A DNA stretch of 53,556 bases from an uncultured Actinomycetes bacterium (GTDB lineage Bacteria > Actinomycetota > Thermoleophilia > UBA2241). A model generated the notes under the pieces. It worked only from the letters and a program-made list of their open reading frames with translations. It made no database searches and was not told the origin of the DNA. This document shows, one piece after another, positions 9,890-49,789 of the stretch. The position numbers and the translations under genes are program-made. The stretch's first letter is position 1. The number at the start of each line of letters is the position of its first letter. The stretch spans positions 1 through 53,556 of the forward strand of contig CAVWIH010000016.1 in NCBI GenBank assembly GCA_963755025.1, given 5' to 3'.

Positions 9890-9899
9890 GTGCGAGAGC

Positions 9900-34286: not shown

Positions 34287-34363
34287 GGCGGCGTAGCTCA
34301 GCTGGTCAGAGCAGCGGAATCATAATCCGCGTGTCGTAGGTTCGAGTCCTACCGCCGCTACCA
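34287..34363 (+). tRNA. tRNA-Met(CAT), elongator type; integration target
   Basis: GGCGGCGTAGCTCAGCTGGTCAGAGCA-GCGGA-AT-CAT-AA-TCCGC...GGTTCGAGTCC...CGCCGCTACCA. Promoter TTGAGG-17-TAGCAT at 34237-34265. Confidence 0.95.
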
Positions 34364-34365
34364 AA
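34317..34365 (+). repeat. attL core (3' half of tRNA-Met)
   Basis: GAATCATAATCCGCGTGTCGTAGGTTCGAGTCCTACCGCCGCTACCAAA. Confidence 0.93.
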
Positions 34366-34399
34366 CCAGCCCCCAGATTTGCAGGCATTTCTCATTTCG

Positions 34400-34421
34400 C
34401 TTGTGAACACCTTGTGAACAC
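34400..34421 (+). repeat. Putative integrase arm-type sites (left)
   Basis: CTTGTGAACAC x2 in tandem; the same 11-mer recurs near attR. Confidence 0.7.
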
Positions 34422-35672
34422 CTACCTCGGAAGCGAAATCGGGCGCGCCGAGGGCGCCCCTTCGACGAGGGCGGCGAAGGTGTCTGCCGCTTCCTGCTGC
34501 ATGCCGGGCAGCACGCTCTGATATACGCGCATGGTGAAGGCCACGTCAGAGTGCCCGAGGCGCTCCGAGACGACCTTCACCGGCACGCCAGCCCGCAGGA
34601 GCAGTGAGGCGTGCGTGTGGCGCACGTCGTGCAGCCGGATCGTGGGCACTCCGGCAGCCACCACGTGACCCCGAAAGGCGCGCGTGATGCGATCGGGGTG
34701 CACAGGCGCGCCGTCCTCTGCGGTGAAGACGCGGTGAGGATTCGGCCAAGGCGCCGGCCATGCTTGGCGCTCTCGCGCCTGTAGCTTCTGCCAGGCGCCC
34801 AGGGCCGCCACCGTCCCGGCGTCGAGGTCGATGACGCGCGAGCGTCCGCGCTTCGGCGTTGTCTCGCGCAGGTCGGCGCCGACGATCGTCAGCGCGCGTT
34901 GCACGGCGATCCGGCCGGCCTTCAGGTCGACGTCGCACCATAGCAAACCCGCGACTTCACCGCGCCGCATGCCCGTGAGGGCGAAGAGGTGCCACATCGT
35001 CGCCAGGCGATCGTCGGCCGTCGCCTCGAGGAAGGCGCGCAGCTCGCCGGCCGTCCACGCTCTGAGTTCATGGCTCTCCGCGAGTCGCGCCTTCGGCAGC
35101 CTTGCCCTGTCGGCAGGGTTCCAGGCGAGCGTGCCTTCGTCGACGGCATCGGCCAGGGCCTTGTGCAAGGTCGCCGCGATGCGCCGCACCGAGGCGGGGG
35201 ACAGGGGCGCGAGCTCCGCTAGCTGGTCGTCTGTGCGGTCCTTGCCGCGCGGGCGCGGCCGGCGCTTCAGCTGGGCGTAGAAGGCGTTGACCGTCGCCCG
35301 GTCGAGCCTCTTGAGTCGTAGGTGACCGATCGCCGGCACGATGTGGCCACTGACGTGCGCGCGGTACGACGCAAGCGTCGTGGCCTTCACGTGGTCGGGG
35401 TGGTCTTCGAGCCAGCCGAGCCAGCGAGTGAGGTACTGCGCCACAGTCTCTCGCGTCGGCTGAGCGGGCAGCCGCCCCTCGCGTCCCGCCATGCGCGCCT
35501 TGTCGCGCGCCGCCGCGGCGTCCTCTCGACTCTTGTAGCCACCGCTGCCGACCAGGCGGCCGCCGACGCGAATGCGGAACGACCAGGTCGCGCCGCGCTT
35601 CATGAGGCCGTCTTTGAGCTTGTCAGGCATCGGCTGCGCCGCCCGGCAGTGGCCCGCTTTGCTCATCTTCAC
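34422..35672 (-). CDS. int: Tyrosine recombinase/integrase (start may be ~35630)
   Basis: TGMRRGE, RLHDVRHTHAS, VSERLGHS...TMRVY catalytic set; N-terminal arm-binding domain. Confidence 0.95.
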   Translation of the reverse strand: MKMSKAGHCRAAQPMPDKLKDGLMKRGATWSFRIRVGGRLVGSGGYKSREDAAAARDKARMAGREGRLPAQPTRETVAQYLTRWLGWLEDHPDHVKATTLASYRAHVSGHIVPAIGHLRLKRLDRATVNAFYAQLKRRPRPRGKDRTDDQLAELAPLSPASVRRIAATLHKALADAVDEGTLAWNPADRARLPKARLAESHELRAWTAGELRAFLEATADDRLATMWHLFALTGMRRGEVAGLLWCDVDLKAGRIAVQRALTIVGADLRETTPKRGRSRVIDLDAGTVAALGAWQKLQARERQAWPAPWPNPHRVFTAEDGAPVHPDRITRAFRGHVVAAGVPTIRLHDVRHTHASLLLRAGVPVKVVSERLGHSDVAFTMRVYQSVLPGMQQEAADTFAALVEGAPSARPISLPR

Positions 35673-35722
35673 TCTCGACGTCGGGAAGCTCTCTTAGGTG
35701 GGCGAGCAAGTAGGCGATGAGA

Positions 35723-36565
35723 TCAGGGAGACGCATCCCAGAGAAGCCCTCCGTAACCCTTGTCGCGCTCGAGGATGGCGGACGCCTCCTCTACCGCGAC
35801 GCCCTTCCCCAAGAGGGCCCACTGAAGGTCGGTGATGTCCTGGCGCCGGTGCCGTGCGGTTCTGTTCGAGGCAGCGGGCCGGGGCCGGTCGACCCGGAAG
35901 CCCATTTCCTCAGCTCGCCGTACCCAGCGCCGGACCTGTGCAAGGCTGTATAGCTGCTGGCTGGCAAGCTCCTTCATTGGGGAGTGAGGGTTGCGCGCCT
36001 GGATTTCGTTATAGGCCCTGGCGATTGCTTCAAAGTGTTCAGGCGGCAGGCCCTTGCGCCCGGGGTGAACGTGTGACGCGCGATAGGCCCTGGCGTCGCG
36101 GCCCCAGATGATCTCCGCGAGGTCGTAGGTCCACGCCGGCATCTCAGCCCGCGCGAGCGGATTCGCGAGACGCTCTTGCTCCTCTTTGAACGACGGGCCG
36201 GGACCACCCCCGGGCCGGCTAATGCGGCCACGAGAGGCGCGCATCGTGTTGATACAGAGGAGGATGTCCTTCAGCGGGATGGCACGAAGGCTACGGGGCG
36301 TCACGTTGACGGGCGCGCCGCCGGAGTCGTCGAGCCCTGCGCCAAGGACGAGCGACGTGCAAATGACCTCGTTCGTCCTGGTGAGCGCAGCGCGGACCCT
36401 CAGCGGGTAGGGCTGCTCGTCCCATCCGACGTCAAGCCAACGAGCCTCGCCGGGTCCTGTCGGCTCATCGGGCCGAAGGGTGAAGGCAAAGCGGAACACG
36501 CGCCCTGACTGCTCGATCTGAATGACGTACTGCTTCTCGGCGCCGAGCTCGGCGTCCTTACCCAT
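35723..36565 (-). CDS. Hypothetical protein with C-terminal HTH (possible repressor)
   Basis: EAIARAYN...PMKELASQQLYSLAQVRRWVRRAEEMG; divergent from the XRE gene. Confidence 0.65.
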   Translation of the reverse strand: MGKDAELGAEKQYVIQIEQSGRVFRFAFTLRPDEPTGPGEARWLDVGWDEQPYPLRVRAALTRTNEVICTSLVLGAGLDDSGGAPVNVTPRSLRAIPLKDILLCINTMRASRGRISRPGGGPGPSFKEEQERLANPLARAEMPAWTYDLAEIIWGRDARAYRASHVHPGRKGLPPEHFEAIARAYNEIQARNPHSPMKELASQQLYSLAQVRRWVRRAEEMGFRVDRPRPAASNRTARHRRQDITDLQWALLGKGVAVEEASAILERDKGYGGLLWDASP

Positions 36566-36752
36566 CGGTCCTCCCATGTGCGTTGCACCGTGACGGCACC
36601 GAGAATACACCGACTTTCCCGGCGTGGCAAGTCATCTGTTCTAGGTCGCTCAAATTGGACCGCATTATTGCAAGTTTCCTTCTGCTCCAAGTGTGCGACG
36701 ATGGTGCTCCGGAACCGCTCATACAGCGACAAACGAGTGATTGGAGAATCAG

Positions 36753-36983
36753 ATGGACGCACTCATGGAGGAGGTCAGAGCGCGGCGACGGTTGCCTGAG
36801 CCGGTAATGCGCCGTGCAATCCGCAAGGCGGCCGGCGTCTCTCAGAAGCGAGCTGGCGAAGAGATCAACGTAACGCACCAAGCCATCGCGCGGTACGAAG
36901 ACGGGTCGCGAACGCCCCGCGGCCCGGTACTCGTGGCCTATGTGGGGTTGCTCGAGGCGTTGCGGGAGGAGAGCGGGCTATGA
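36753..36983 (+). CDS. XRE/Cro-like HTH regulator
   Basis: RAIRKAAGVSQKRAGEEINVTHQAIARYEDGSRTP. Confidence 0.85.
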   Translation: MDALMEEVRARRRLPEPVMRRAIRKAAGVSQKRAGEEINVTHQAIARYEDGSRTPRGPVLVAYVGLLEALREESGL

Positions 36984-37252
36984 ATCCGCGGGAGATGGTC
37001 ACGAGTCAGACCGACACTGATCGCGACGCCATCCTCGCGCAGCTGCGCGGGAAGTTCGTGTGCAGCATCGACGAGGCGCGAGTCCTGCTCGATCTCGGAA
37101 GAGTCGCCGCCTACCGCCTCGCGGCCACGAACGGCGCACTCGCTGACGGGGTCGGGGTCCTGAAATGCGGCCGCCTGTACAAGGTACCTGTGCGCCCGCT
37201 CCTGCTCGCCGTTCTCGGCGATGCCGACGTCGACGACCAGGGCGAGGACTGA
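36980..37252 (+). CDS. AlpA/excisionase-like DNA-binding protein
   Basis: SIDEARVLLDLGRVAAYRLAA...LKCGRLYKVP. Confidence 0.7.
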   Translation: MNPREMVTSQTDTDRDAILAQLRGKFVCSIDEARVLLDLGRVAAYRLAATNGALADGVGVLKCGRLYKVPVRPLLLAVLGDADVDDQGED

Positions 37253-37255
37253 GCG

Positions 37256-37561
37256 ATGACGTGCTGCTCCGAATGCAGGTACTGGCACGCTCGCCACGAC
37301 ACCGAGCGCTACCTTCGCCAGGGTGCCGACGCTGACACTGACGCAGTTCCAGAGTGGCTGTCGGCAGATACTCGCCGGCTCGAGGCCGAGGCCGGCGCTG
37401 AAGAGTTCAGCGGGACGCTCCACTTCGACGACCTGCCGTGGGTCGCGCTGCCCGGCGAGTGCCGGCGGCACGCGCCGCACTTCCCGGCTGGCTGGCCCAT
37501 GGCGGGCGCCGACGACTTCTGCGGCGAGTTCGCCGCGAAGACCGGCGAGAAGCTTCCATGA
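37256..37561 (+). CDS. Cys-rich hypothetical phage protein
   Basis: CSECRYWH...GECRRHAP...WP...DFCGEF; overlaps the next start codon. Confidence 0.65.
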   Translation: MTCCSECRYWHARHDTERYLRQGADADTDAVPEWLSADTRRLEAEAGAEEFSGTLHFDDLPWVALPGECRRHAPHFPAGWPMAGADDFCGEFAAKTGEKLP

Positions 37562-38685
37562 GGGAGACAGAGAAGACCGTCGCCACCGGCGATGACGCCC
37601 CGGCGCCCATCACGTGCACGCCCGTCGAGCCGGCATCGGACGGCAGCGAAGGAAACGGCTCGCTACTCGTCTGCTTGAGCGACGTCCGGCCGCAGACCGT
37701 CGAACACCTGTGGCCGCGGCGCATCCCGATGGCCATGCCGTCGATAATCTTCGGGCCCGGCGGCCTGGGCAAAACGCACTGCTGGGTCGACATCGCGACC
37801 CGCGTCTCACTTGGCTCGCCATGGCCGGACGGCGGCCGGGCGCCGCGAGGCAACATCGTGGTGATAAGCGGCGAGGATGACTGGGCGACGACGCTCGTGC
37901 CGCGGCTGATCTACTCGGGAGCCGACCTGCACCACGTCTTTGGATTTCCCGCCGTGGCTTCGTTCGGCGAGGGCGATCGGCGTACGTTCCGCCTGACTGC
38001 GGACGCCGCCACCCTCGAGCGCGAGATCCTGAGCGTCAACGCCGTCCTGGCGATCGTTGACCCGCTGACGTGCTTCCTGGACGGCGTCGACACCCACAAC
38101 ACCGGCGACGTGCGAGTCGCGCTGTCGATGCTCGCCGACGTCGCCTCGCGCACCGGCGCGGCCATCCTGTGCGTCTTGCACCCCAACAAGGCAGAGAAGG
38201 ACGGAGCGTCCGCCCTGAACCGCCTCAGCGGCTCAGGAGCCTTCGGCGCGGCGGCGCGCAGCGTCATGGCCGTTGTGACGGACCCGAAAGACGAGACCGA
38301 AGAGCGGCGGCTACTGCTCCCGGTCAAGCTAAACATCGGCCGCATGCCGGGCGGCTTGGGCTTCAGGGTCGTTTCCGACAACCCTGATACCTGCGACAGC
38401 GGCATCACGTGGGATACCGACCCCGTCGAGGTAGATGCCGACGAGGCCTTCGGCCGGGTGCGGCCCGACACGCCGGCCATGATCCACGCGAAGGCCTTCC
38501 TCCTGCGTGTCTTGGGCGACCACGAGCCCTACCCCTCGAAGGTCCTCGACGAAGAGGCATCCGAGGCCGGTATCAAGGAGCGCACCCTGGCGCGCGCAAA
38601 GCGCAAGCTCGGCGTCATCAGCGAGAAAGACGGCTTCGCAGTCGGCGCCGTCTGGACCTGCCGACTTCCCGGCGGCGAGCGATGA
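37558..38685 (+). CDS. RecA-like AAA_25/RepA-type helicase
   Basis: Walker A GPGGLGKT, SGEDD, Walker B IVDPL, HPNK, SGSGAFGAAARS. Confidence 0.85.
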   Translation: MRETEKTVATGDDAPAPITCTPVEPASDGSEGNGSLLVCLSDVRPQTVEHLWPRRIPMAMPSIIFGPGGLGKTHCWVDIATRVSLGSPWPDGGRAPRGNIVVISGEDDWATTLVPRLIYSGADLHHVFGFPAVASFGEGDRRTFRLTADAATLEREILSVNAVLAIVDPLTCFLDGVDTHNTGDVRVALSMLADVASRTGAAILCVLHPNKAEKDGASALNRLSGSGAFGAAARSVMAVVTDPKDETEERRLLLPVKLNIGRMPGGLGFRVVSDNPDTCDSGITWDTDPVEVDADEAFGRVRPDTPAMIHAKAFLLRVLGDHEPYPSKVLDEEASEAGIKERTLARAKRKLGVISEKDGFAVGAVWTCRLPGGER

Positions 38686-38698
38686 CGCTCGCTTCCGC

Positions 38699-38852
38699 CC
38701 CCAAGAATGCCAGCTCGCTTCGCAACCTTCGAGGCAGTCTTTTGCGCGCGCGCGTATACACACCTACTGGCACTCTTGGGCAGTCTTGGGCAGTCTTGGG
38801 AGCCGTCGCGCCCCAAGAATGCCAAGAGTGCCAAGAGTGCCCAAGAGTGCCA
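38699..38852. repeat. Iteron cluster, putative replication origin
   Basis: Three GCA(C/G)TCTTGG at 38770-38799 face four CAAGA(A/G)TGC at ~38813-38850 in inverted orientation; one more copy near 38700. Confidence 0.75.
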
Positions 38853-38887
38853 GGGACACCCCACGCGCGCACGCGCGAGGCGGCATC

Positions 38888-39877
38888 GTGAGCGTCTGCA
38901 CCGCCGAAAGCGCTCTCAGTTCAGCCGACCTTGCCGCCTTCGACTCGCAGCCCCTTCTGCGCGGCGACCATGCCGACTATCTCTGCCCATTCTGCCACGA
39001 CGATCGCCCAGGGCGCCGTCGCGACAACCAACATCGCAAGCTCAGGGTGTGGCCGACAGGTGGCTGGAACTGCGTGCGTTGCGGCCGGCACGGCTTTCTC
39101 GAGGATCGCAAGCAGGGTCACGACGATGACCCGCTTCGCCCTGGCCGCAAGACGCAGCCGCGGCCGGTGGGTTCGGAGCCTTCACCCGCCGAGATCGCCG
39201 AGCTCGCCAGCAAGCGCGCCGCCAAGCGCCGCTTGTGGAGCGAGGCCGTGGCGATCGACGATCCGGCCGCCGCTGCCGGCGCTGCGTACCTCTGGGAGCG
39301 TCGCGGCCTGCCGCTACTGCCGGCCGTCTCCGCTGGCGTGCGCTTTCACGCCGACTTCACCTGGCGGTCAGAGGCTCCGTATCGCTGGGCTGCCGAACGG
39401 GCCCGCGGCGCCGTCGTCTTTCTCGTGACCGACGCCGCCGGCAACGCCGTCGACCTCGAGGCGCGCTACATCGATGCCGCCGCGCCGAAATCCCGCAGCA
39501 CCGGCAAGGGGGGCGTCTTCGTCGCGACGCCCGACGCCCTCGAAGCCGACCACCTCGTCGTGTGCGAGGGTCCGCTCACCGCCTTGTCCGTGGCTGCCTG
39601 CGGCCAGCCGGCGATCGCCCTGTGCGGTCGCGTCCTGCGGCCATGGCTCGCCATTCACTTGGCCGGCCGCACTGTCTTCGTGTCGCTCGACTGGCACGAA
39701 GCCGGCGCTGACGAAGCCGGCGGCGCCGCCTTTGGCGCCCTGCACGCCGTGGGCGCCCGTCCGTACCGCCTGGCGCTGCCCGCCGGCTCAGGCGACTGGA
39801 ACGACCACCTTCGCGCCGTCGGCCTCGCCGATATGCGTGCCGAGCTCGAGCACGTCATCGGCAAGGCGACGTCGTGA
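38888..39877 (+). CDS. Primase-like protein (zinc finger plus Toprim)
   Basis: CPFC...WNCVRC; VVCEGPLTALS; SLD; GDWNDHL. Confidence 0.75.
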   Translation: MSVCTAESALSSADLAAFDSQPLLRGDHADYLCPFCHDDRPGRRRDNQHRKLRVWPTGGWNCVRCGRHGFLEDRKQGHDDDPLRPGRKTQPRPVGSEPSPAEIAELASKRAAKRRLWSEAVAIDDPAAAAGAAYLWERRGLPLLPAVSAGVRFHADFTWRSEAPYRWAAERARGAVVFLVTDAAGNAVDLEARYIDAAAPKSRSTGKGGVFVATPDALEADHLVVCEGPLTALSVAACGQPAIALCGRVLRPWLAIHLAGRTVFVSLDWHEAGADEAGGAAFGALHAVGARPYRLALPAGSGDWNDHLRAVGLADMRAELEHVIGKATS

Positions 39878-39918
39878 GCCACTTCACCTACCCCACCAAA
39901 CCAAGCGAAAGGAACCTC

Positions 39919-40905: not shown

Positions 40906-41280
40906 ATGGTTTTGGTGAATCGATGCATGAGCTGCGGCGAGCCGATCAGACAGCCTGCGACTGGCCGGCGGCGCCAATTCTGTTCCGATCGGTGCAGGAA
41001 GCGCGCGCACCGGCGGCGCATGGGCGGCGTCTATCGCATCATGGTCGCGTCCGCGCCGAATGACGCCGAGCTCGACGCTCAGCTGGGCGCCGCGAGCGAA
41101 GAGTTGCTTCACCTGCCGTCAGATCCGGACGAAGCGGTCGTGCAGACCGTGATGGAAGCTCGCGCACTGGCGACGGCGTTCGCGCATTGCGCCAGCCGGG
41201 GCCGGCCGCAGTTGGCCTGGCGCTGCGCGAAGGCCGCCGACGAGATCACCGCCGTCTTGGCGCGCTACTTCACGATCTGA
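40906..41280 (+). CDS. Hypothetical protein with an N-terminal zinc finger
   Basis: CMSCGEP...GRRRQFCSDRCRKRAHR. Confidence 0.65.
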   Translation: MVLVNRCMSCGEPIRQPATGRRRQFCSDRCRKRAHRRRMGGVYRIMVASAPNDAELDAQLGAASEELLHLPSDPDEAVVQTVMEARALATAFAHCASRGRPQLAWRCAKAADEITAVLARYFTI

Positions 41281-41290
41281 GGGCGCCCGC

Positions 41291-41590
41291 ATGAGCGGCA
41301 CCTGCCAAGTCGAAGGCTGCGACCACGAGACGAAGGGCAACCGGAGGCACTGCGACATGCACCGCAAGCGCCTAAGCGTGCGCGGCGACGTCGGGCCCGT
41401 CGGCTACGTCGCTTGGCCGCGAGGTACGCGGGGCTGCAAGATTCCCGGCTGCCCCGACCCTCACGACTCCCTCGGCCTCTGCTCGGCTCACTATCAGCGC
41501 TACCACGCCAGCAGCTTCTGTTGCCCATGCATCGGCGCCTTCTCTGGCGTGTTCACGCGAGGGCCGCGCCCCGTCGTCGACGATGCCTGA
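41291..41590 (+). CDS. Small protein with two C-x4-C...C-x2-H zinc modules
   Basis: CQVEGC...CDMH and CKIPGC...LCSAHY; no HNH nuclease domain follows. Confidence 0.6.
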   Translation: MSGTCQVEGCDHETKGNRRHCDMHRKRLSVRGDVGPVGYVAWPRGTRGCKIPGCPDPHDSLGLCSAHYQRYHASSFCCPCIGAFSGVFTRGPRPVVDDA

Positions 41591-41698
41591 AGGCGTGCGG
41601 GGCGCCCTGGCCGGCCGCCTCTATCTCGACTCAGGATGTTGCTCGCAATTCCTGCAAACTTCCGGGGCAAACATTCGTCCGAGTCGAAGGAGGGTGAC

Positions 41699-42205
41699 AC
41701 GGCAACGCCCTGGACCACCACTGATCTGAGGCTACTGAAGGCTGAAAGCAGCCTCGGAGCGGTCAAGCTCAGCGAGCTGCTCGGTCGTTCGGTCAGCTCG
41801 GTCGAAGCGGCAGCTCATCGCCAGCGGATCTCGCTTCGTCGCTCTGGCTGCCGTCGCGGCTCAGTTCTCGGCCAGCCCCGCGGCGTCTCGCTGCTGCCCG
41901 CTCTGCGCTCCGACCTCATCGACCCGAAAATCGCCGAGCTGGTGGCGCAGCGCATGAAGGTGAATCAGGACGCGCCTCTATGCCCGCGCTGCGCTGCTCG
42001 CACCATTCGCGTCGAAAGCACGGGTTTGTGCGTCGTCTGCCACCGCCAAGTCCTGGCCGAAGCTCACCGCGAAGTGCTCGCCGAGATCTCTTCGCAACAG
42101 GCGTTGTGGGCGGCTCGCCAGGACCTACAGCGCGCGCGAAGGCGTTTGGGCGTTTCGTACCCCCACGATGAGAGCGGCGAGCCTGTGGCGGAGCCGCCCT
42201 CATGA
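41699..42205 (+). CDS. Myb/SANT-like HTH plus zinc-finger protein (possible late regulator)
   Basis: PWTTTDLRLL...LSELLGRSVSSVEAAAHR; CPRC...CVVC. AGGAGG precedes an in-frame ACG at 41699. Confidence 0.6.
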   Translation, partial: TATPWTTTDLRLLKAESSLGAVKLSELLGRSVSSVEAAAHRQRISLRRSGCRRGSVLGQPRGVSLLPALRSDLIDPKIAELVAQRMKVNQDAPLCPRCAARTIRVESTGLCVVCHRQVLAEAHREVLAEISSQQALWAARQDLQRARRRLGVSYPHDESGEPVAEPPS

Positions 42206-42268
42206 GTTGGGTGACGCCCCTGGCAGACTAGGCCCGGACCTTAAACCGTGAGCCCCGGAGGCCGCGTC

Positions 42269-43534
42269 ATGACTCAGCAAAACGTAGCAATGGCCGCGGC
42301 GCTCCAGAGCCTGCAGTCCGCTCGCATGAACGAGCGGCTCGCGTGGGGTCGACTCACGAAGGCGAAGGCGGAGGCTGAGAGGCGGGGCGCCACCGGCCTC
42401 CGCCCTAGTTCCCCCGAGTTCAAGGCGCTTGACGCCGCCGGCCGTGCTCACGACGCCGCCTACGAAGCGCAGACGGCCGCCGAGAGGACGCTCGCAAGAA
42501 TGTACGAGGCGATCGACGTTGGCTTCGGACCGGGGTCGAGTAGCGGCGCCTGGTCGCCGTCCGGCTGCGTGGCCGAGATCCGGAACTGGGCGACCAAGGC
42601 GAGCGCCGGCAAAAGCAACGGCCTCGGCAGCACGCTCGGCAAAAGCCCGGCCTTTGGCCTGATCCACGCCGACGAGTTCCAGAACGCCGTGGGCACCGCC
42701 GCGAACTACCCCGAGCCCACCTGGCGCGCGCCCGGCTTCGAGCCGGTGGCCGGCCCTCAGCTGAACCTCGTCGACCTCATCACGTGGCTACCCTCGGAGA
42801 CTGAAAACCCGCAGTGGATGGCCGAAAGTCTGCTGACCAACACCGCGACTGAGACGCCTGAAACGCTCGTCGCCCCCGAAGCGGCCGTGAGCTACACGCC
42901 CGAGAATGGCTTCACAAAGAGGCTGCCCGTCACGCTGCCCGCCTCGCGCCAAGCCCTCGACGACGCGCCGGTGCTGCAGGACCTGCTCGACAATCGGCTC
43001 GTGTACGCGCTCAAGGTGCGACTGCAGGGACAGTGCCTTTACGGAAACGGCGACCTCACCGCAAACACCGCGAACATGCGCGGCATCATGAGCACGCCCG
43101 GCGTCCTTTCCGTGGCTGTTCAGACGTCGGGCAGCCCGCTCGACCCCACGGTCGACGCCATTCAGAACGCAATCACCGCGATTCGGCTGGGTACCGGCGG
43201 TTGGTATGAACCCTCTGCGTTGCTCATTCACCCGACCGACGCGCAGGCGCTTGCCGCGCTCAAGAACACGACCGGGAGCTACGTCTTTGAGCCAGGCCAG
43301 CCGCTGACGCCTTTCGGGCTGAAGACCGTCATCACGCCTGCCGTGAACCCGACGCAGCCCATCGTGGGGTGCCCTGAGAGCCTGACCGGCTTCGTTCGCG
43401 GCGACATCTTCGTCGCGCTGTCCGACACGCACCTCGACTTCATGATGAGGCGCCTGATTCAGATTTATTGCGAGGGCCGCTTCGCCCTGGCCGTGCGGCA
43501 GCCCGCCGCGTGGTGTCAGATCACCGGCTTCTGA
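42269..43534 (+). CDS. HK97-fold major capsid protein with N-terminal coiled-coil
   Basis: SRQALDDAPVLQDLL, LYGNG...MRGIM, IHPTD...LKNTTGSYVF, FGLKTVITP, EGRFALAVRQPAAW. Confidence 0.85.
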   Translation: MTQQNVAMAAALQSLQSARMNERLAWGRLTKAKAEAERRGATGLRPSSPEFKALDAAGRAHDAAYEAQTAAERTLARMYEAIDVGFGPGSSSGAWSPSGCVAEIRNWATKASAGKSNGLGSTLGKSPAFGLIHADEFQNAVGTAANYPEPTWRAPGFEPVAGPQLNLVDLITWLPSETENPQWMAESLLTNTATETPETLVAPEAAVSYTPENGFTKRLPVTLPASRQALDDAPVLQDLLDNRLVYALKVRLQGQCLYGNGDLTANTANMRGIMSTPGVLSVAVQTSGSPLDPTVDAIQNAITAIRLGTGGWYEPSALLIHPTDAQALAALKNTTGSYVFEPGQPLTPFGLKTVITPAVNPTQPIVGCPESLTGFVRGDIFVALSDTHLDFMMRRLIQIYCEGRFALAVRQPAAWCQITGF

Positions 43535-43596
43535 GCTGAGACCGGAAGCGCTGGGGCGATGAACCTCGCGATCAGTCGAGGGGTGGTGGTGTAGCC

Positions 43597-46467
43597 GTGA
43601 CTGTCACGATCAATGTCGTCTCGCGCCTCGACGACTACGCGCTGAAGCGCGCGCAGGCCGAGATGCTCGGCCTCGGCAAGGCTGCGATCCGCTCCGACTC
43701 GAGCATGGCGGGAGCTTTCCTGCGCACCGGCGCGACCCTCAGTGCGCTGAGCACCAAGCTCAAAGCCGTCGGCACCGGCATGTCGATGTACGTCACCCTT
43801 CCCCTGGCCGCCATCGGCTACGAGTCCGTGAAGTCGGCCATGAAGTTCCAGTCGAGCATGGCGCTCATCAAGACGCAGGCCGGCGGTACCGCGGGCGACG
43901 TCAAGGTGCTCTCTGCGGCCATCCTTGGCATGAAGGACGTGCAGTACGGCCCCAACGAGCTCGCGGCCGCCATGTACCACCTGAAGAGTGTGGGCATGGA
44001 CAACAAGAATGCCATGGTGGGGCTGCGCGTCGCCACCGAGGGCGCGGCCGTCGGGCAAGCCGACCTCGAGCAGACCACGAGCGTCCTGGCGGCCGCCTGG
44101 AAGAGCGGCGTCAAGGGCGCCGGCACCTTCAAGGACGCCATGGCCGAGACCAACGCCATCGTGGGCGCCGGCAACATGCGCATGAACGACCTCGTGAGCG
44201 CCCTCTCGACCGGCATCCTCGGGTCCGCCAAGATCTTCGGCGTCTCCATGCAGAGCGTGGGCTCGGCGCTCGACGTGATGGCCGACCGCGGCCTGCCGGC
44301 GACGCGCGCCGCCACCGGCCTGCGCATGGCCATCTCGATGATGGGCTCGCCTTCGAAGGCGGCCGCCACGATGCTCAACTCGCTGGGCATCAAGACGCTC
44401 GAGCTGGGCACCGACATGCGCCGCCCCGACGGCCTGCTCGTGGCCATGCAGGACCTGCACGACCACCTGGCTGGCCTCAGCCAGGAGCAGCAGGCTTTCG
44501 ACCTCTCCAAGATCTTCGGCGGCGGCCGCACGAGCTCGGCGGCCATGATGCTGATCGGCAACCTCGACGCGCTGGCGACCAAGTACAAGCAGGTCGGCAA
44601 GACGGCCGGCGACTTCACGAGCGAGGTCGCCACGCAGGCCAAGACCGTGTCCGCGCAGTGGGCCGAGTCGAAGGCATCGCTTGAGTCGAGCGCCATCCTG
44701 ATCGGCAACGACCTCATGCCGCTCGTGCTCGAGGGCGCGCACGCCATCGACCGGCTGGCCGAAGCCTTCCAGGGGATGTCGCCGAGTACGCGCAGGTTCG
44801 TGGTCGACTGCGGGCTTGTCGCGGCTGCCGTGGGCCCCGTGGCCTACGTGCTTGCCGGCCTTACAAAGATCGCGGCGTCCGCTTCGACCGGCATCGGCAT
44901 GCTCATGCTGAAGCTCAATTCAGGCAGCAGTGTGGGCGCGGGCGCTACGGGCCTGGGCGGCACTCTCAACAAGATCCTCGGCCGCGGCGGCGCAGGCGCA
45001 GGCAGCACCGCCGGTATGGTCGCCACCGACGGCGGCGCGGCTTCAGCCGGCGTGCCGGTCGTGCTGGTAGGCGCCGCGGCAGCCGCTTCGGCGGCGCTGA
45101 CCGGCGGCCTCATCTACGAGCTGGCCACCTACCGGGAGAAGCGCAACGCGCCGAGCGGCGCGACGCTCAACCCGAAGGGCGTGCAGGGCGGCGCGGGCGC
45201 TCACCTTACTCACTCGGGTGCGAGCGTGGCCGGCATGTACACCCCCGCCGACGCCATCGAGAACCTCTCTCTGATCATCCCCGCGCAGACGCGCTCCGGT
45301 GTAGAGAACTACATGGAGCTGCTCAACAACCTGCACAAGCTCGAAACGCAGCCTGAGGCGCTCGGCCCCGTGCAGGCCACCCACACCGCGCGGCAGCTCG
45401 TCAACATCCGCGCCAACATCATCTCCAGCCTGCACATTACGGCGGCCCAGGCAAACGCTGTGATGAACAGCATCTTCGGCAAGCAGTGGGACCCGGCCAA
45501 GGACATGCAGCCTTCCTTCATGGCCGCCGAGAACGCCCTGCAGGCCGAGATCACCAAGTGGAAGAAGCTCGGCCTCAGTCTGACCGGCGGCCTGGCGGCC
45601 GGCGTCGTGGCGGGCAACGACTACGCGGTCAAGACCGTCGAGGCGCTCGCCAGCGGCCCGCACGGCATGACCACGCAGTTCGCCGAGCAGGTGCAGTCGC
45701 ACTCGCCCAGCCGCGTGTTCTACCAGTTCGGCCAGTACATCACGGAAGGCCTGGCCAACGGCATCACGGAGAGCGCCTCCGGGCCGCTGTCGGCGATCGC
45801 CAAGCTCGGCAAGGAGGTAGCCGCGGCGCTGGGCGCCATCACGTCAGCGACCGACAGTGCGCTGGGCGGCATCGGCTCGGCTGTCGCGGGCGCGGCCGGC
45901 GGCGGCGGGAAGTCGGGCGGCGGCAGCGTCGGCTCGGGCAAGAACGTGGCGACGGGCAAGAAGCTCGCCGCCAAGTACGGATGGAACACCGGCCAGCAGT
46001 GGGCCGACCTCGACATGCTCTGGGAGCGCGAGTCGGGCTGGAACAACACAGCGCAGAACCCGACCTCGACGGCCTACGGCATTGCGCAGTTCCTCGACTC
46101 GACGTGGAGCGGCTACACCTACGCCAAGACGAGCGACCCCACCAAGCAGATCGTCGACGGCCTCGAGTACATCAAGCGCCGCTACGGCACGCCCGCCGAG
46201 GCCTGGGCGCACGAGACGCGCATCGGCTGGTACGACCAGGGCGGCGTGCTGCCGCCCGGCCTCTCGCTGGCCTACAACGGCACCGGGCACGACGAGATAC
46301 ACACGAGCGGGCCGGGCCGGGGTCCGACCGTCATCAACAACTACGAGATCAACCCGCCGCCCGGCCTCATGGTCGGCGACTACGAAGACTTCGCGCAGGC
46401 GCTGTGGCCGTGGATCGAGCGCATGATGGCGCACTCTGAGTCAAGGCACAGGGGGGTGCTCGGATGA
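43597..46467 (+). CDS. Tail tape-measure-like protein with C-terminal lytic transglycosylase (SLT) domain
   Basis: TP901-like core (VGTGMSMYVTLPL, KFQSSM, AATGLRMAI, KIFG), HSPSRVF, LWERESGWN...STAYGIAQFL, WYDQGG. Confidence 0.88.
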   Translation: MTVTINVVSRLDDYALKRAQAEMLGLGKAAIRSDSSMAGAFLRTGATLSALSTKLKAVGTGMSMYVTLPLAAIGYESVKSAMKFQSSMALIKTQAGGTAGDVKVLSAAILGMKDVQYGPNELAAAMYHLKSVGMDNKNAMVGLRVATEGAAVGQADLEQTTSVLAAAWKSGVKGAGTFKDAMAETNAIVGAGNMRMNDLVSALSTGILGSAKIFGVSMQSVGSALDVMADRGLPATRAATGLRMAISMMGSPSKAAATMLNSLGIKTLELGTDMRRPDGLLVAMQDLHDHLAGLSQEQQAFDLSKIFGGGRTSSAAMMLIGNLDALATKYKQVGKTAGDFTSEVATQAKTVSAQWAESKASLESSAILIGNDLMPLVLEGAHAIDRLAEAFQGMSPSTRRFVVDCGLVAAAVGPVAYVLAGLTKIAASASTGIGMLMLKLNSGSSVGAGATGLGGTLNKILGRGGAGAGSTAGMVATDGGAASAGVPVVLVGAAAAASAALTGGLIYELATYREKRNAPSGATLNPKGVQGGAGAHLTHSGASVAGMYTPADAIENLSLIIPAQTRSGVENYMELLNNLHKLETQPEALGPVQATHTARQLVNIRANIISSLHITAAQANAVMNSIFGKQWDPAKDMQPSFMAAENALQAEITKWKKLGLSLTGGLAAGVVAGNDYAVKTVEALASGPHGMTTQFAEQVQSHSPSRVFYQFGQYITEGLANGITESASGPLSAIAKLGKEVAAALGAITSATDSALGGIGSAVAGAAGGGGKSGGGSVGSGKNVATGKKLAAKYGWNTGQQWADLDMLWERESGWNNTAQNPTSTAYGIAQFLDSTWSGYTYAKTSDPTKQIVDGLEYIKRRYGTPAEAWAHETRIGWYDQGGVLPPGLSLAYNGTGHDEIHTSGPGRGPTVINNYEINPPPGLMVGDYEDFAQALWPWIERMMAHSESRHRGVLG

Positions 46468-46781
46468 CCGACCACGCGAAGCAGAGCATCGTCGACGAGC
46501 TGATCGCCGGCTTAGGCGGCTGTGAGGAACTGCGGAACCCGGGAAGTCTCGCCGCAGTGGCGCAGCATTGTCGCGACGGCATCGTAAGCTTCGCCGAGAA
46601 CGAAGATCGCGTACGCCGAGGAGAAGACGCCATCCCCCCGTCGCCAGGGCCGCGGATCGCTCTTACCCTTCTGCTCTGCTGGCTAGCCGACCAGTACGAC
46701 AGAGACGAGCTCGACGGCGAGCTGGTGCACCTGTTCGCTGACCTACTCAATCGCCGGTACCCGCCGCTGCGGTCGGTCTGA
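46464..46781 (+). CDS. Hypothetical protein
   Basis: ATGA overlap with the tape-measure stop codon. Confidence 0.55.
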   Translation: MTDHAKQSIVDELIAGLGGCEELRNPGSLAAVAQHCRDGIVSFAENEDRVRRGEDAIPPSPGPRIALTLLLCWLADQYDRDELDGELVHLFADLLNRRYPPLRSV

Positions 46782-46786
46782 GCCCC

Positions 46787-46981
46787 ATGGCCGACGCGGC
46801 AGTCGCCAGGGAGCTTGCGCCCTTCTCTGACCCGTCAGGGCGCGTAGAGCGCGGCGTGCGACGGCACTCTCGCGAGCTGCAGCGGCTCGCCGACGAAGTT
46901 CGCGCGCTCTGCTCTGAAGTCTCGCGGGAGAAGCTGAGCGATTCGGACCACGAGTGTCCCCTCGGGCCTAGTGGCTCGTGA
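46787..46981 (+). CDS. Small hypothetical protein
   Basis: Directly follows the previous ORF. Confidence 0.4.
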   Translation: MADAAVARELAPFSDPSGRVERGVRRHSRELQRLADEVRALCSEVSREKLSDSDHECPLGPSGS

Positions 46982-47126
46982 GCACCACGTAGATGATGAA
47001 GACACAGATGGCGCAGACCGGGATGAGCATGAGCAGGCAGCCGAGGCTGGCCAGCCCGCTGCCGATGACCCCGAGGATCGCGCCGAAGGTGGCGAACCCG
47101 CTGCCCGGCTGTTTGTCTTCTGCCAT
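46968..47126 (-). CDS. Small membrane protein
   Basis: MAEDKQPGSGF followed by ~38 hydrophobic residues; RBS GGGGGAG. Confidence 0.55.
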   Translation of the reverse strand: MAEDKQPGSGFATFGAILGVIGSGLASLGCLLMLIPVCAICVFIIYVVLTSH

Positions 47127-47231
47127 CACTCCCCCTGCGTCGTATCCGTGACGCTTGGCCGCCACGTGGCCGCGCAGTCACCCTAGTACCAGACTACGAC
47201 CATAGGGGCTGCCGGTACAGTGGCCGTCTCG

Positions 47232-47785
47232 CAAACGCGGAAGGCCCCGCGCCTTGTCGGCGTCGGGGCCCTCGCGGCGACTGCAGCCACCTTCACAGAG
47301 TAGCACCGGCGTCGGTCGGAAGCGCCGGCGGGCAGCGCCGCAGGAATACTGCCAGGCTGTCGCTGTCCTAAAGAGAGAAGGGCGGGAGGGCGCCGCGGCT
47401 GTGCAGGCGGGCGCCCTCCCGGGATTCACCGGCGGAAGAGAGGGTCCAGCCGGCGCCAAGAGTCTACACCCCTGCCCGCGGGTGCACTGTCGATTGTTCA
47501 TGTGTTAGTCAGGGCAGGCGACGCCAGCAAGGTGTCGGCAGGGGCGGAGAGGGCGCCCGGAAACGACCTAAGCGCCCCCTCGGAGGCCGCCGGCCGCAGG
47601 AGGTGCCAATCGACCGGCACCGTAAGTGTACCCACGGCACGACGGTCGGTAGCCGGAACGACAGCTGCTCCGGCGCGTCGCCTTGTGGCGCGGCGAGAGG
47701 GCGCCGGGGATCCAGGGCCCGACGCCCTCTCTGGGAATCGCGCCAGCGACCGGGGGGTACCGGGCTCGCTGGCGTCGAGAGTCTA
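47232..47785 (-). ncRNA. Tandem array of 3-4 predicted small RNAs (-10 box, 5' hairpin, 3' GC hairpin)
   Basis: Minus-strand -10 boxes at 47297, 47461, 47625 and 47780 (spacing 164/164/155). Repeated GAGGGCG.../...CGCCCTC stems. Plus-strand A.C mismatches become G.U pairs on the minus strand. Confidence 0.6.
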
Positions 47786-47868
47786 CAGCAGTCCCGATTC
47801 CTTGACCCCGTTCGAGTCGAAGAATGCGAGCCGGGTTGCTCGCTTGACCGCCGTCGACTACGATTTTG

Positions 47869-47928
47869 CGCGGACCCCCCACAAGGTCTCGGCCCCCGTC
47901 TTCCCGTGAGACGGGGGCCGTTATTGTT
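47869..47928 (+). ncRNA. Predicted ~60-nt small RNA convergent with the nuclease-like gene
   Basis: TTGCTC-17 bp-TACGAT promoter (47836-47864), GGACCCCCCACAAGGTC, then a 12-bp terminator stem plus TTATTGTT. Confidence 0.55.
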
Positions 47929-48006
47929 GGGGCCGGCTCAGACGGCAGCCGGCCCGCCGCTCCGATCGGGAACGACGGGCCGGTGCGTCTGCGGCGACTG
48001 AAGGGC

Positions 48007-48594
48007 TCAGGCGGACGCGCGCAGCCCTGCGAGGCCGTTGTCGGCCGCCAGGGGCCCCGCGGCCTTCGGCAGCTCCCACATCGGCAGAAGATCGCCGCCG
48101 GCCGCCTTTCGCATCGCCCTGAGGGAGCTCTGCTCACCGAGCGGGTAGGCGGTGCCAAGGAACACGTGCTCTGGACCTTCGCGCAGTATAGCCGCGAAGC
48201 TGAAGTCGACCGGTGCAACCATCAAGCGCGTGCCCGTGCGGCGCCCCTTTCCCTTCTTGTGGCCGTAGTGGCGTTTCTCGCGCCATGAGACCGCCCGCGG
48301 GTCGCCAACGGCGAGGCGCTCGAGGATGTCCCAGACGAGGCCCATGAGAGCGCATCGGCGGGGGTCAAGCCAACGCTCCTGGGATCCCCGGTGGGCCCCT
48401 GTAGCGACGTGCCAGAAGAGCTTGTCGATGTCCCCAGCGGGCAGGACGGGCCGGCCCTGAAGTTCGATGTGACCGTCGACGGCTTGCTCGAGCTGCCAGC
48501 GGCAGCGCTGGACCCACTCCTGCACGCTCCCGTCGAAGCTGGCGATTGAGAACGGCTCGGGTAGCCTGAGCTCGCCGGCATCTTCGACCATCAC
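48007..48594 (-). CDS. Putative barnase/EndoU/RelE-like (PBECR-type) nuclease
   Basis: FWHV...ERWLDPRRC...W...R...AILRE...FLGTAYP pattern, recognised from memory only. Confidence 0.5.
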   Translation of the reverse strand: MMVEDAGELRLPEPFSIASFDGSVQEWVQRCRWQLEQAVDGHIELQGRPVLPAGDIDKLFWHVATGAHRGSQERWLDPRRCALMGLVWDILERLAVGDPRAVSWREKRHYGHKKGKGRRTGTRLMVAPVDFSFAAILREGPEHVFLGTAYPLGEQSSLRAMRKAAGGDLLPMWELPKAAGPLAADNGLAGLRASA

Positions 48595-48956
48595 GCCGCC
48601 CCGGCGACGGCGCGCAGGTCCTCGAGCACGAGGCGCTCGCGTTCGCTCAGCTGCCAGCCGAGGGCCTCGACGATGCGCTCGAGCGTCTGCACCGTGACGC
48701 GCAGCCGGGCACGCGAGCCCATGCGCGGCCAGGGGCGCGGCATGAGCTCGGCCTTCAGGGCTTCGGCGCGATCGCGCTGTGCGGTCGTGTTGGGGTCGAT
48801 GAGGACGACGGCCTGGCGCCTGCCGCGCAGGATCGCCGACCCGAGCTCGAGGTGCCCTTCGCCTTCATCGGCGCGCCGCGGGTCGTCTTTCGGCCAGCTG
48901 CAGATCCCCACGAGCAGGCGGCTCGTGGTCAGTTCCATGGTCTCGTGGTCGCTCAT
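48591..48956 (-). CDS. Hypothetical protein
   Basis: MSDHETMELTT... with a G-rich RBS; stop overlaps the next start. Confidence 0.55.
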   Translation of the reverse strand: MSDHETMELTTSRLLVGICSWPKDDPRRADEGEGHLELGSAILRGRRQAVVLIDPNTTAQRDRAEALKAELMPRPWPRMGSRARLRVTVQTLERIVEALGWQLSERERLVLEDLRAVAGAA

Positions 48957-49000
48957 TGATTCCCCCCGGGAATCGAGTTTCGACAGGATGCGACGCTGCG

Positions 49001-49318
49001 CTATTTGGCGTCGTCGGGCTCCGCGTCGCGCCAGGGCGCCGGCGGGGTGCTGTCCCCGGTGAGGCCCTCCGCTGCCGGCGGCTTGGCCGTCTGGCGCTGC
49101 AGGAAGTTGTTGACCTCTTCGCGCCAGACCAGGATGCGCGACTTCGAGTAGTCGACCCGGTGCAGCCGGCCCGTGGCGATCAGGGCGCGCACCGTGGGCG
49201 CGCTGACCCGCAGGGCGCGGCAAAGATCGTCGGTGTCGAGCACGAGCGGCAGGCGGTAGAGCGGGCGCTCTATGTCGCGGCTCGCGGCCGACTGCTTTGG
49301 GTGGCGTGGCTCAGGCAT
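49001..49318 (-). CDS. Excisionase-like HTH protein
   Basis: LDTDDLCRALRVSAPTVRALIATGRL...RILVWREEV; lies next to attR. Confidence 0.75.
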   Translation of the reverse strand: MPEPRHPKQSAASRDIERPLYRLPLVLDTDDLCRALRVSAPTVRALIATGRLHRVDYSKSRILVWREEVNNFLQRQTAKPPAAEGLTGDSTPPAPWRDAEPDDAK

Positions 49319-49413
49319 GTTTTTCCCTTCGGTCGAACGGCGTGGCGCTGACGCGATAGGGAGCGGGGAGGGGGCCTCGTAGTGGCGCAGGAGTGCCCTG
49401 GCGCCCTCTCGCG

Positions 49414-49433
49414 TGTGAACTTCTTGTGAACAC
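49414..49433 (+). repeat. Putative integrase arm-type sites (right)
   Basis: TGTGAAC-TT-CTTGTGAACAC. Confidence 0.65.
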
Positions 49434-49571
49434 TTGCGCGAAAACCGAGGTGTAACGGGGTGTCACTGGCGATAGTCTGGGGACCGATGACCGCCGAGAA
49501 AGCGCACGATTTGCGGCGCTTTTGCTGACTGGACTGTGCCGGGCCGTCATAGCGTGTAACGGCCGGGCCGT

Positions 49572-49620
49572 GAATCATAATCCGCGTGTCGTAGGTTCGA
49601 GTCCTACCGCCGCTACCAAA
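49572..49620 (+). repeat. attR core (duplicated tRNA-Met 3' half)
   Basis: Identical to 34317-34365. Confidence 0.93.
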
Positions 49621-49789
49621 AACCTCCGCCGACCCCAGGCCAGCCGCAAGACGATCAGCTCGAAAATCGTCGCGCAGGGCGCCGGAGAAGCCAGAGACGG
49701 CATCGCGCACGCCACCGAGTGCCCGCAAGGTCCTCAAGGCCTGCGCCCGTGCCGGCTCCGCCTGCACGGGCCGAGGAGCGCCAGCCGCG

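Follow-up and report, generated by a model that had tools for sequence, protein, structure and literature searches.

The window analysed here is the whole of contig C16 (CAVWIH010000016.1, 53,556 nt), one of 39 contigs in a 3.37-Mb assembly of an uncultured Actinomycetes bacterium (84% complete, 5% contamination, approximately 68–70% G+C). Positions 34317 to 49620 hold an integrated element which encodes an integrase, a putative pair of divergent regulators, a helicase and primase on either side of a putative origin, and two intact virion genes, one for an HK97-type major capsid protein and one for a tape measure protein. An earlier note on the same DNA had described this layout, bounded by an attachment (att) pair, and repeats, Pfam, PHROGs and iterons all agree with it. 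Handles beginning with G, C and L are our own for genomes, contigs and loci, and contigs given without a genome handle belong to the window's assembly.

The insertion site

An exact 49-nt direct repeat encloses the 15.2-kb element, and full-length copies of this repeat occur twice in the whole 3.37-Mb assembly, both of them at the element's ends. The left copy (attL) overlaps the 3′ end of a tRNA-Met gene, and the pair has the classical form of tRNA-targeting att sites. The integrase gene adjoins attL, an excisionase (Xis)-like gene adjoins the right copy (attR), and no open reading frame (ORF) is broken. The tRNA-Thr/Tyr/Met locus is kept across the genus, with matches in 12 of 12 genomes.

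To the right of attR (window 49621–53556) lie SpoIIE/GAF/PAS sensor genes, and the SpoIIE/GAF genes do not adjoin tRNA-Met in any of the six congener loci compared. In the nearest relative (G002:C2, L085), the DNA 3′ of tRNA-Met is approximately 90% identical to contig C37 from position 10305 (C37:10305–16640). Beyond the element's right end there is probably at least 14 kb of extra strain-specific DNA.

The two virion genes

The capsid protein is 28% identical to HK97 gp5 and carries an N-terminal extension of approximately 170 aa, conserved throughout its family, which would be cleaved and would act as a scaffold. We considered an encapsulin as an alternative identity and rejected it, given the matches to Phage_capsid and HK97 gp5, the mobile-element setting, and HNH-like neighbours of a kind that flank terminase genes in phages.

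The tape measure gene has the same orientation as the capsid gene and follows it at a distance of 62 bp. Its product matches 28 PHROG families (best E 1e-50), with 19 of the 25 listed being annotated as tape measure, and its N-terminal half matches 792 phage records at 25–29% identity, 16 of the 25 listed carrying the same annotation. It has the features of the siphovirus tape measure family: a PhageMin_Tail domain, the expected length, two hydrophobic segments (approximately residues 400–427 and 479–507), and a C-terminal muralytic (SLT) domain with the E-S catalytic motif. Judged from its sequence, this is a genuine, full-length tape measure protein.

Missing virion and packaging functions

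Candidate ORFs in the element (23 in total) were picked by length and third-position G+C and then scanned with Pfam and PHROGs. Seven exceeded the curated Pfam cut-off, while PHROGs gave matches for nine, agreeing with Pfam and adding two HNH-like genes. None of the 23 matched a terminase, portal, prohead protease, connector, tail tube or chaperone family in Pfam or PHROGs, even when the unmatched ORFs were rescanned at E ≤10. A six-frame family search of the whole assembly found Phage_portal (PF04860), TerL_ATPase (PF03354) and Terminase_4 (PF05119) on contigs C24 and C28 only. The same assembly holds two Phage_capsid loci (the element and C28) and one PhageMin_Tail locus (the element). The absence of terminase, portal, protease and tail tube genes, as the earlier note had claimed, is thus borne out both by the 23 ORFs and by six-frame matches that fall on other contigs alone.

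The element's ORFs of at least 290 aa are those for the integrase, a 295-aa protein, the helicase, the primase, the capsid protein and the tape measure, with no others. Only the 295-aa ORF is both large and unclaimed, so no large terminase or portal could lie hidden in the element. Twelve of the 23 ORFs have no match at E ≤0.01 in Pfam or PHROGs, and small accessory genes (e.g., small terminase, adaptor or chaperone) may therefore be present. An actinobacterial integrative and conjugative element was also considered and rejected, as no ORF matched FtsK/Tra, a relaxase or Nudix in the Pfam scan.

One way to account for such a gene set is an autonomous minimal virus with an HK97-fold shell, which would package and deliver its DNA without portal or terminase. 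This option has been raised for portal-less, capsid-only mini-genomes, called 'twilight zone' mini viruses (PMC13669383). A tape measure, however, would be meaningless without a tail tube and tip, the HNH-like terminase accessories imply terminase-driven cos packaging, and the Pfam scan of the 23 ORFs found no rolling-circle Rep, so we consider an autonomous virus barely credible.

Genes next to the capsid gene

In L024 and L027, both full phage loci, homologues of the 124-aa zinc-finger/HNH-like protein encoded upstream of the capsid gene lie directly upstream of the terminase genes, and in L063 a homologue lies upstream of a methylase gene, which is followed by the large terminase gene. L041 also holds a homologue, with ORF layout as the only guide to its context there. 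Within the window's capsid clade, the satellites L006 and L023 each have two copies, located beside the capsid gene.

The 189-aa protein, encoded immediately upstream of the capsid, has 29 homologues, all hypothetical and one labelled Actinomycetota. A narrower family alignment was also used, with which searches returned four and six loci, mostly short. The broader alignment and an AlphaFold2 model (mean predicted local distance difference test score of 82) give its architecture as an N-terminal helix-turn-helix (HTH), an Arg-rich linker, an invariant CxxC...CxxC ribbon and a long helix. Foldseek comparison of the model with the PDB returned only folds at the homeodomain/HTH level, none at E ≤1e-3. 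Its gene is capsid-adjacent in four satellites (L006, L023 and L007 among them), and homologues also occur in phage lysis regions, in the prophage resident in this genome (39% identical), and beside Xis-like genes elsewhere.

The earlier note had suggested looking for a small terminase subunit (TerS) hidden among the small ORFs. The 189-aa protein was the candidate, and we rejected it as a recognisable TerS: it has no BLAST similarity to the Terminase_4 protein of the sibling element described below and no Pfam match better than E 0.028, and Foldseek did not change this. A small terminase may still be among the 12 ORFs that have no family match. We read the 189-aa protein as a putative DNA-binding regulator or packaging-specificity factor.

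Elsewhere in the assembly, C13:31609–32373 encodes adjacent homologues of the 124-aa and 189-aa proteins, with integrase genes on that contig at approximately 5–6 kb and 48–49 kb. At a contig end, C33:131811–136941 holds an integrase gene in three frames, apparently frameshifted (59–74% identical), a homologue of the element's 90-aa ORF and a zinc-finger-like stretch. Further related elements, partly decayed, may exist in this genome.

Regulators, replicon and remaining genes

The coordinates of all features are given in Table 1. The HTH_3 regulator gene is divergent from the 295-aa ORF, which has no Pfam or PHROG family match. In L093, a homologue of the 295-aa protein (50% identical) sits between the integrase and HTH_3 genes, and the pair is conserved there. 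The spacer of approximately 200 bp between helicase and primase contains three direct 10-nt iterons (38769–38800) facing four to five inverted copies (38702–38713 and 38813–38852). The primase is 67% identical to the 322-aa primase of L006, and its start is likely the GTG at 38888 because of the reading frame and the position of the iterons. The 128-aa ORF 3′ of the primase and the 105-aa ORF 3′ of the tape measure gave no usable Atlas match. Two minus-strand ORFs have counterparts in L006, with 52% identity for the 195-aa ORF and 40% for the 210-aa ORF.

Table 1. Features of the element and its insertion site (window coordinates)
Feature	Position	Strand	Evidence
tRNA-Met (CAT), integration target	34287..34363	+	ARAGORN
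attL, 49-nt core	34317..34365		exact direct repeat
Tyrosine integrase, 416 aa	34422..35672	-	PF00589 1.7e-21; phrog_1 2e-68; 70% identical to G003 sibling integrase
295-aa protein, candidate master repressor from its position	35723..36610	-	no family match
HTH_3 (Cro/CI-type) regulator, 80 aa	36741..36983	+	PF01381 9e-9
Two small ORFs, 90 aa and 101 aa	36980..37561	+	no family match; 90-aa 75% identical to sibling L006 ORF
AAA_25 (RepA/DnaB-like) helicase, start uncertain	37438..38685	+	PF13481 3e-24; PHROG primase/helicase families
Putative replication origin	38702..38852		Tandem Repeats Finder and direct sequence reading
DUF7146 + Toprim_3 primase, ~329 aa from GTG 38888 (ORF 38507-39877)	38888..39877	+	PF23639, PF13362
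Three ORFs, 128, 105 and 72 aa	39874..40799	+	no Pfam/PHROG match even at E 10
124-aa zinc-finger/HNH-like protein	40906..41280	+	phrog_2308, phrog_1271
HNH endonuclease, 99 aa	41291..41590	+	phrog_5351 2e-8
189-aa HTH + Zn-ribbon + long-helix protein, unnamed family	41636..42205	+	alignment, AlphaFold2 model
HK97-type major capsid protein, 428 aa	42248..43534	+	PF05065 8e-20 (residues 171-422); phrog_10 7e-25
Tape measure protein, 956 aa, C-terminal SLT lytic transglycosylase domain	43597..46467	+	PF10145 2e-21; PF01464 4e-6; phrog_1533 1e-50
Two ORFs, 105 aa (start overlaps tape measure stop) and 64 aa	46464..46981	+	no family match
Minus-strand ORF block: 65, 107, ~216, 195 and 210 aa; last three overlap, boundaries uncertain	46968..49223	-	no family match
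HTH_17 excisionase-like protein, 105 aa	49001..49318	-	PF12728 6e-8; phrog_66 excisionase/regulator
attR, 49-nt core	49572..49620		exact direct repeat

A lineage of small capsid-bearing elements

Related capsids were sought with a profile in two samples: 401 genomes of the class, of which 11 had matches at E ≤1e-20, and 401 genomes of the phylum, of which nine had matches at E ≤1e-25 (one unpublished genome, G485, is counted here and otherwise left out). A sequence-pattern search for the capsid found no relative in the genome_contigs or viral_contigs sets. Of 17 non-self capsid loci inspected, seven belong to small elements with an integrase and with neither large terminase nor portal (G003, G211:C93, G016, G228, G247, G042 and G544), eight are full head modules of terminase, portal, protease and capsid (L008 being placed among them by ORF layout only), and the other two are unclear or decayed (G062 has a truncated capsid, and in G488 the capsid lies beside uvrA).

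Direct repeats bound five of the seven small elements, which range from 9.9 to 14.9 kb. Four are at tRNA genes: tRNA-Met in G003 (50-nt repeat, 14.9 kb), tRNA-Asp in G247 (46 nt, exact, 11.4 kb), tRNA-Gly in G228 (53 nt, 10.8 kb) and tRNA-Tyr in G544 (60 nt, 9.9 kb). The element in G042 has a non-tRNA target (20 nt, exact, 9.9 kb).

The closest of these is the sibling element (L006) in the congener G003, which occupies the same tRNA-Met site in the same tRNA-Thr/Tyr/Met locus. Identity to the window element is 70% for the integrase, 75% for the 90-aa ORF, 67% for the primase, 45% for the capsid, 38% for the 189-aa protein, 52% and 40% for two minus-strand ORFs, and 42% for the Xis-like protein. 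Unlike the window element, the sibling has a helicase of the D5 type, a small terminase (Terminase_4) and no tape measure. Synonymous sites are saturated because the nearest DNA relatives share 45% (capsid) and 43% (N-terminal half of the tape measure) protein identity.

In a maximum-likelihood tree of 17 capsids, the window capsid forms a clade with those of G003, G211:C93 and G016 (support 100/99), and all four are from small elements. Across the entire tree, four changes are required to explain the small-element label, so small elements with a capsid gene have arisen or diversified on several occasions. The relatives indicate that the window element belongs to a lineage and is not a one-off deletion remnant.

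A remnant would be a siphophage that lost its terminase, portal, protease and most of its tail genes and is now immobile. Such an origin would fit the related capsids in full head modules (8 of 17 loci) and the tape measure relatives, which are phage genes, and decay does occur, as in the truncated capsid beside an integrase in G062 and the integrase fragment at the same tRNA-Met site in G006. The window element, however, has att repeats identical at 49 of 49 positions, an intact integrase and Xis-like gene with no broken ORF, and a satellite- or plasmid-type replicon (AAA_25 helicase and primase with iterons). Its sibling has the same backbone, the same missing genes and the same site in another species, its capsid clade consists of small elements only, and there are five further att-bounded relatives of 10–15 kb. 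The earlier note had proposed that full prophages as closest relatives would mark the element as a deletion remnant. This is not what the capsid gives, with its 100/99 small-element clade and the G003 sibling, whereas the closest relatives of the tape measure are indeed phage genes. We give the remnant explanation a slim chance.

A near-identical copy of part of the element exists in another data set or in the source data, as follows from metagenome contig L095 (1,160 bp), which is 99.6% identical to window 41289–42387 over 1099 nt. The four differences lie outside the capsid and tape measure genes. The first 61 nt of L095 fail to align with the window upstream of 41289 (compared region 41228–42387), which suggests a recombination boundary just 5′ of the HNH gene in a near-identical element.

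Origin of the tape measure gene

The nearest relatives of the tape measure are 43% and 40% identical over approximately 420 residues of the N-terminal half, are 968 and 948 aa long, and are located in ordinary siphophage modules with the gene order tube, chaperone, tape measure. A sequence-pattern search for the tape measure found no relative in the genome_contigs set. Its third-position G+C (GC3) is 0.93, uniform along the gene, compared with 0.73–0.86 for the other element genes measured and 0.93 for the tape measure of a phage relative. This offset, together with a sibling that has no tape measure, speaks for acquisition of the gene from a phage within this lineage. The gene is best read as a lineage-specific siphophage capture, as its composition and relatives suggest, and not as a class-defining gene.

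Capture need not mean use: recombination with a siphophage could recently have brought in the tape measure gene and the ORFs downstream of it as passengers which have no role in the satellite and will decay. The G003 and G016 elements without a tape measure, the GC3 difference, and the phage tail modules around the nearest relatives are all compatible with this. Against it, the gene is intact over 956 codons, has the length of its phage relatives, and lies on the capsid strand at a spacing of 62 bp. The order of capsid then tape measure also recurs independently in G042 and in the EPIP satellites discussed below, which would be unlikely for random passengers. We therefore judge a passenger gene distinctly unlikely.

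The G042 element (9.9 kb) answers a search, proposed in the earlier note, for other att-bounded elements with capsid and tape measure alone. It encodes an integrase, an AAA_25 helicase, an HTH protein, a capsid, a 143-aa ORF and a 944-aa protein with TMP_2 and M23 peptidase domains, and it has no other structural gene. The G042 capsid groups in a different clade, and BLAST finds no similarity between the tape measures of the two elements. The pairing of capsid and tape measure in G042 appears to be an independent recurrence. A further element in G211:C45 (L042, 852–12539) is integrated at tRNA-Thr and encodes an integrase, several HTH proteins, Rep_O, a 194-aa HNH protein and an 832-aa tape measure (phrog_1533 2e-57), with no capsid before the contig end. 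It may be another type of satellite that carries a tape measure.

Comparison with known satellites

Classical phage-inducible chromosomal islands (PICIs), including the pathogenicity islands of Staphylococcus aureus (SaPIs), are att-bounded elements of approximately 15 kb with an integrase, divergent regulators, pri-rep genes and an origin. Islands of the SaPIbov5 type combine a capsid homologue (Ccm) with helper cos packaging. To our knowledge, classical PICIs have no true virion genes, and none is known to encode both a tape measure and a capsid protein of full length. The window element resembles them as a 15.2-kb att-bounded island with an integrase at one end and a helicase/primase replicon next to a putative origin, but it departs from them in its structural genes, a full-length capsid and a tape measure.

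The definition of capsid-forming PICIs (cf-PICIs) is reportedly that of Alqurainy et al. 2023. Like the window element, cf-PICIs are islands that encode an integrase, an HK97-type capsid and an HNH endonuclease, and they borrow their tails, as is proposed for the window element. Unlike it, they carry a full head and packaging set (portal, protease, connectors and terminase subunits), whereas the window element has only the capsid and HNH-like genes. Making their own capsids is part of how cf-PICIs are defined in PMC10690885. The same text describes the Streptomyces satellites MulchRoom and MiniFlayer, with small and large terminase, portal, scaffold, adapter and capsid genes and, as far as that text goes, no tape measure. 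Both resemble the window element in being actinobacterial and in having their own capsid and HNH genes, and MulchRoom, as described there, also has a tyrosine integrase.

Different again is the PLE, a PICI-like element. PLEs are ICP1-dependent islands of Vibrio with a large serine recombinase, a RepA_N replicon and no capsid gene. The window element instead has a tyrosine integrase, an AAA_25/Toprim replicon and a capsid gene, and PLEs show no homology to it. PLE11 of Vibrio cholerae is nevertheless instructive, as its own tape measure, chaperone and hub replace those of ICP1 (PMC12987554), the tape measure substitution being demonstrated by western blot, mass spectrometry and electron microscopy. 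It resembles the scheme we propose for the window element in placing a satellite tape measure within helper-built tails, which in PLE11 is shown experimentally and in the window element is proposed from its genes. PLE11 differs, on that account, in having a myovirus helper and in supplying a chaperone, a baseplate hub and Rta, an inhibitor of the helper's tape measure. The figures of that paper also include tmp genes in PLE-like elements and some cf-PICIs (PMC12987554, Extended Data Fig. 10).

A close published parallel in gene order is given by the EPIPs (Extracellular Prophage-Inducing Particles) of Mycolicibacterium aichiense, known from 13 isolates. They are 11 kb long and encode a small terminase, adaptor, stopper, serine integrase, scaffold, capsid and tape measure, and their virions have smaller heads and longer, variable tails (PMC12822802). 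EPIPs and the window element are both small actinobacterial satellites which encode a capsid and then a tape measure, lack a large terminase, portal and tail tube, and have a siphophage helper (for the window, a presumed one). In the isolate Alyssa1 (OR387110), the capsid gene (7458–8282) is followed by the tape measure gene (8355–10310) with a gap of 72 bp, compared with 62 bp in the window.

The two differ in size (approximately 11 kb versus 15.2 kb) and in integration (a serine integrase versus a tyrosine integrase at a tRNA site). EPIPs are without a helicase/primase module, whereas the window element has its own replicon and HNH genes. EPIPs encode a small terminase and an adaptor, none being identified in the window element, where Pfam and PHROGs recognised no EPIP-type small terminase, adaptor, stopper or scaffold (12 small ORFs have no family match). 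The N-terminal extension of the window capsid may fill the scaffold role. Using tblastn, 23 window proteins gave one weak match to Alyssa1, a tape measure stretch of approximately 98 aa (E 9e-5 in an 11-kb database); this sequence comparison covered Alyssa1, one of the 13 isolates.

Portal-less mini-elements have been described from the human gut: integrase-bearing, with a mean size of approximately 8.75 kb, they have capsid and scaffold as their sole structural genes, with no portal, terminase or tail genes, and one such genome holds a lone tape measure ORF (PMC13669383). On that description, these mini viral entities resemble the window element in being small and lysogenic, with an integrase, excisionase, RepA/helicase and regulators and with an HK97-fold capsid as the sole head gene. 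They differ in being smaller and gut-derived and in having 'encapsulin-enriched' capsids, whereas the window element has an HK97 gp5-like capsid and a high-GC host.

A full-text literature search (supplements being outside its scope) found no element of PICI layout with capsid and tape measure alone, nor this capsid clade. The earlier note had gone further and proposed a distinct satellite class. That proposal is not supported, with EPIPs, PLE11 and portal-less capsid-only mini-elements already published: the element is a variant within a now-known theme and not a separate satellite class.

The resident prophage

The genome also carries a prophage of siphophage type that is divided between two contigs, lying at the end of C28 (C28:136000–155943, L047) and at the start of C24 (C24:1–5300, L048). 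The C28 part encodes an amidase, fibres, a 750-aa tape measure, a tube, a 338-aa HK97 capsid, an 809-aa portal fusion and, at its end, a C-terminal fragment of the large terminase. The C24 part encodes a large terminase in two ORFs, Terminase_4 and a methylase. Apart from the homologue of the 189-aa protein mentioned above, it shares with the element a Xis-like stretch and a weak zinc-finger-like stretch only. We considered the prophage as a matched helper and set this aside, as neither capsid nor tape measure similarity supports it. The prophage is a possible helper of the element, not a matched one.

The mismatch also bears on an interference-first explanation, in which the capsid and tape measure would act mainly as dominant-negative decoys against the assembly of invading phages, a population-level defence, and the element would spread rarely or by other means. 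Satellites commonly pair hijacking with assembly interference, and mixed assemblies with the unrelated capsid and tape measure of the prophage could be non-productive. Rta of PLE11 blocks tail assembly via the tape measure (PMC12987554), and the 12 unmatched ORFs could be defence cargo. A decoy, however, would need neither a tape measure that is full length and keeps its SLT motif intact nor a full-length capsid with a scaffold-like extension. The replicon and the HNH-like packaging accessories of the element suggest that it packages its own DNA, and the analogous EPIPs and PLE11 use, or are proposed to use, such proteins in their own virions. We regard interference as the main function as unlikely.

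A probable satellite with its own head shell and tail ruler

We consider it moderately probable that the element, known from its genes, is an integrated, helper-dependent, PICI-like satellite which supplies its own head shell and its own tail ruler. In the proposed mechanism, an HK97-type helper siphophage with HNH-assisted cos packaging would derepress the element, which would then excise and replicate from its own origin. The element's capsid protein, whose scaffold-like N-terminal extension appears to resemble that of relatives encoded beside an S78 protease, would assemble on the helper's portal, and the helper's protease would mature the shell. The helper's terminase would package the 15-kb element DNA, and the element's tape measure would replace the helper's within the helper's tail tube and tip. 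The outcome would be chimeric virions with a tail length set by the satellite and a head-piece with a cell-wall-piercing SLT domain. The tape measure would be an accessory taken from a phage and not universal in this family of capsid-bearing satellites.

Several observations weigh against this interpretation. An empty attB with both flanks is not demonstrable, as the right flank is non-syntenic in the nearest relative. The only prophage seen in this genome is a poor fit, with a capsid (338 aa, no long N-terminal extension) and tape measure that are not detectably similar to the element's. The tape measure gene directly follows the capsid gene without an upstream chaperone pair, so chaperones of the helper would be needed. 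No tape measure is seen in three of the four elements that make up the window's capsid clade (G211:C93 stops at a contig edge), which makes a passenger possible. The small-element label is not significantly clustered over the 17-capsid tree, with 63 of 500 shuffles giving as few as four changes. Finally, no small terminase, cos site, head–tail adaptor or tail assembly chaperone was identified, with 12 of the 23 ORFs unmatched.

Taking the relatives and the published satellites together, we tentatively propose, at somewhat less than an even chance, a wider reading. Capsid plus tape measure would be a recurrent minimal hijacking kit of actinobacterial satellites, with at least three independent origins (the window clade, G042 and EPIPs). 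With this kit, the satellite would set the head shell and the tail ruler/ejection protein, while the portal, protease, terminase, connectors, tube and tip would come from a siphophage. The window element would be its most stripped-down form, having no small terminase, adaptor or scaffold gene, plus a full PICI-type replicon. It would also represent an undescribed lineage of tRNA-integrating capsid satellites, with a marker trio of HNH-like zinc-finger protein, HTH/Zn-ribbon protein and capsid.

Satellites were long thought to remodel heads and packaging only. Tail remodelling by a satellite tape measure was shown only in 2025–2026, in two systems (PLE11 and EPIPs). The window element and G042 suggest that the pairing of capsid and tape measure recurs in uncultured Actinomycetota and is reducible to two virion genes, which offers a clean natural experiment on the virion components that a parasite has to provide itself. 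Finders built on PICI, cf-PICI, P4 and PLE definitions would probably miss tRNA-integrating capsid-only satellites or call them 'incomplete prophage', and in annotation such loci should not count as degraded prophages.

Other observations in the window and genome

The window between 11000 and 20000 has a lower GC content (0.61–0.65, compared with approximately 0.69) and carries genes for an oligopeptide ABC transporter and for an X-Pro dipeptidyl peptidase. Several genes there seem to be split or truncated, namely those for a partial binding protein of 398 aa, a permease piece of 143 aa and the peptidase, which is in pieces of 452 and 197 aa. This region may be a decaying or foreign island, or it may contain assembly errors.

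Five ORFs of the element terminate in TAG. Outside the element, a gene for an MtbB-like dimethylamine methyltransferase (PF09505; 22513–23793, + strand) contains one in-frame TAG at 23419–23421, after which the frame continues. The same is seen in the gene for an MttB-like trimethylamine methyltransferase (PF06253; 23821–25308, + strand), with its in-frame TAG at 24802–24804. We take these positions to be approximately those of pyrrolysine in archaeal methyltransferases. Contig C10 encodes PylS (70114–70989; 278 bits, above the cut-off) and PylD (75537–76259; 173 bits summed), and the bacterium probably decodes TAG as pyrrolysine in both methyltransferase genes.

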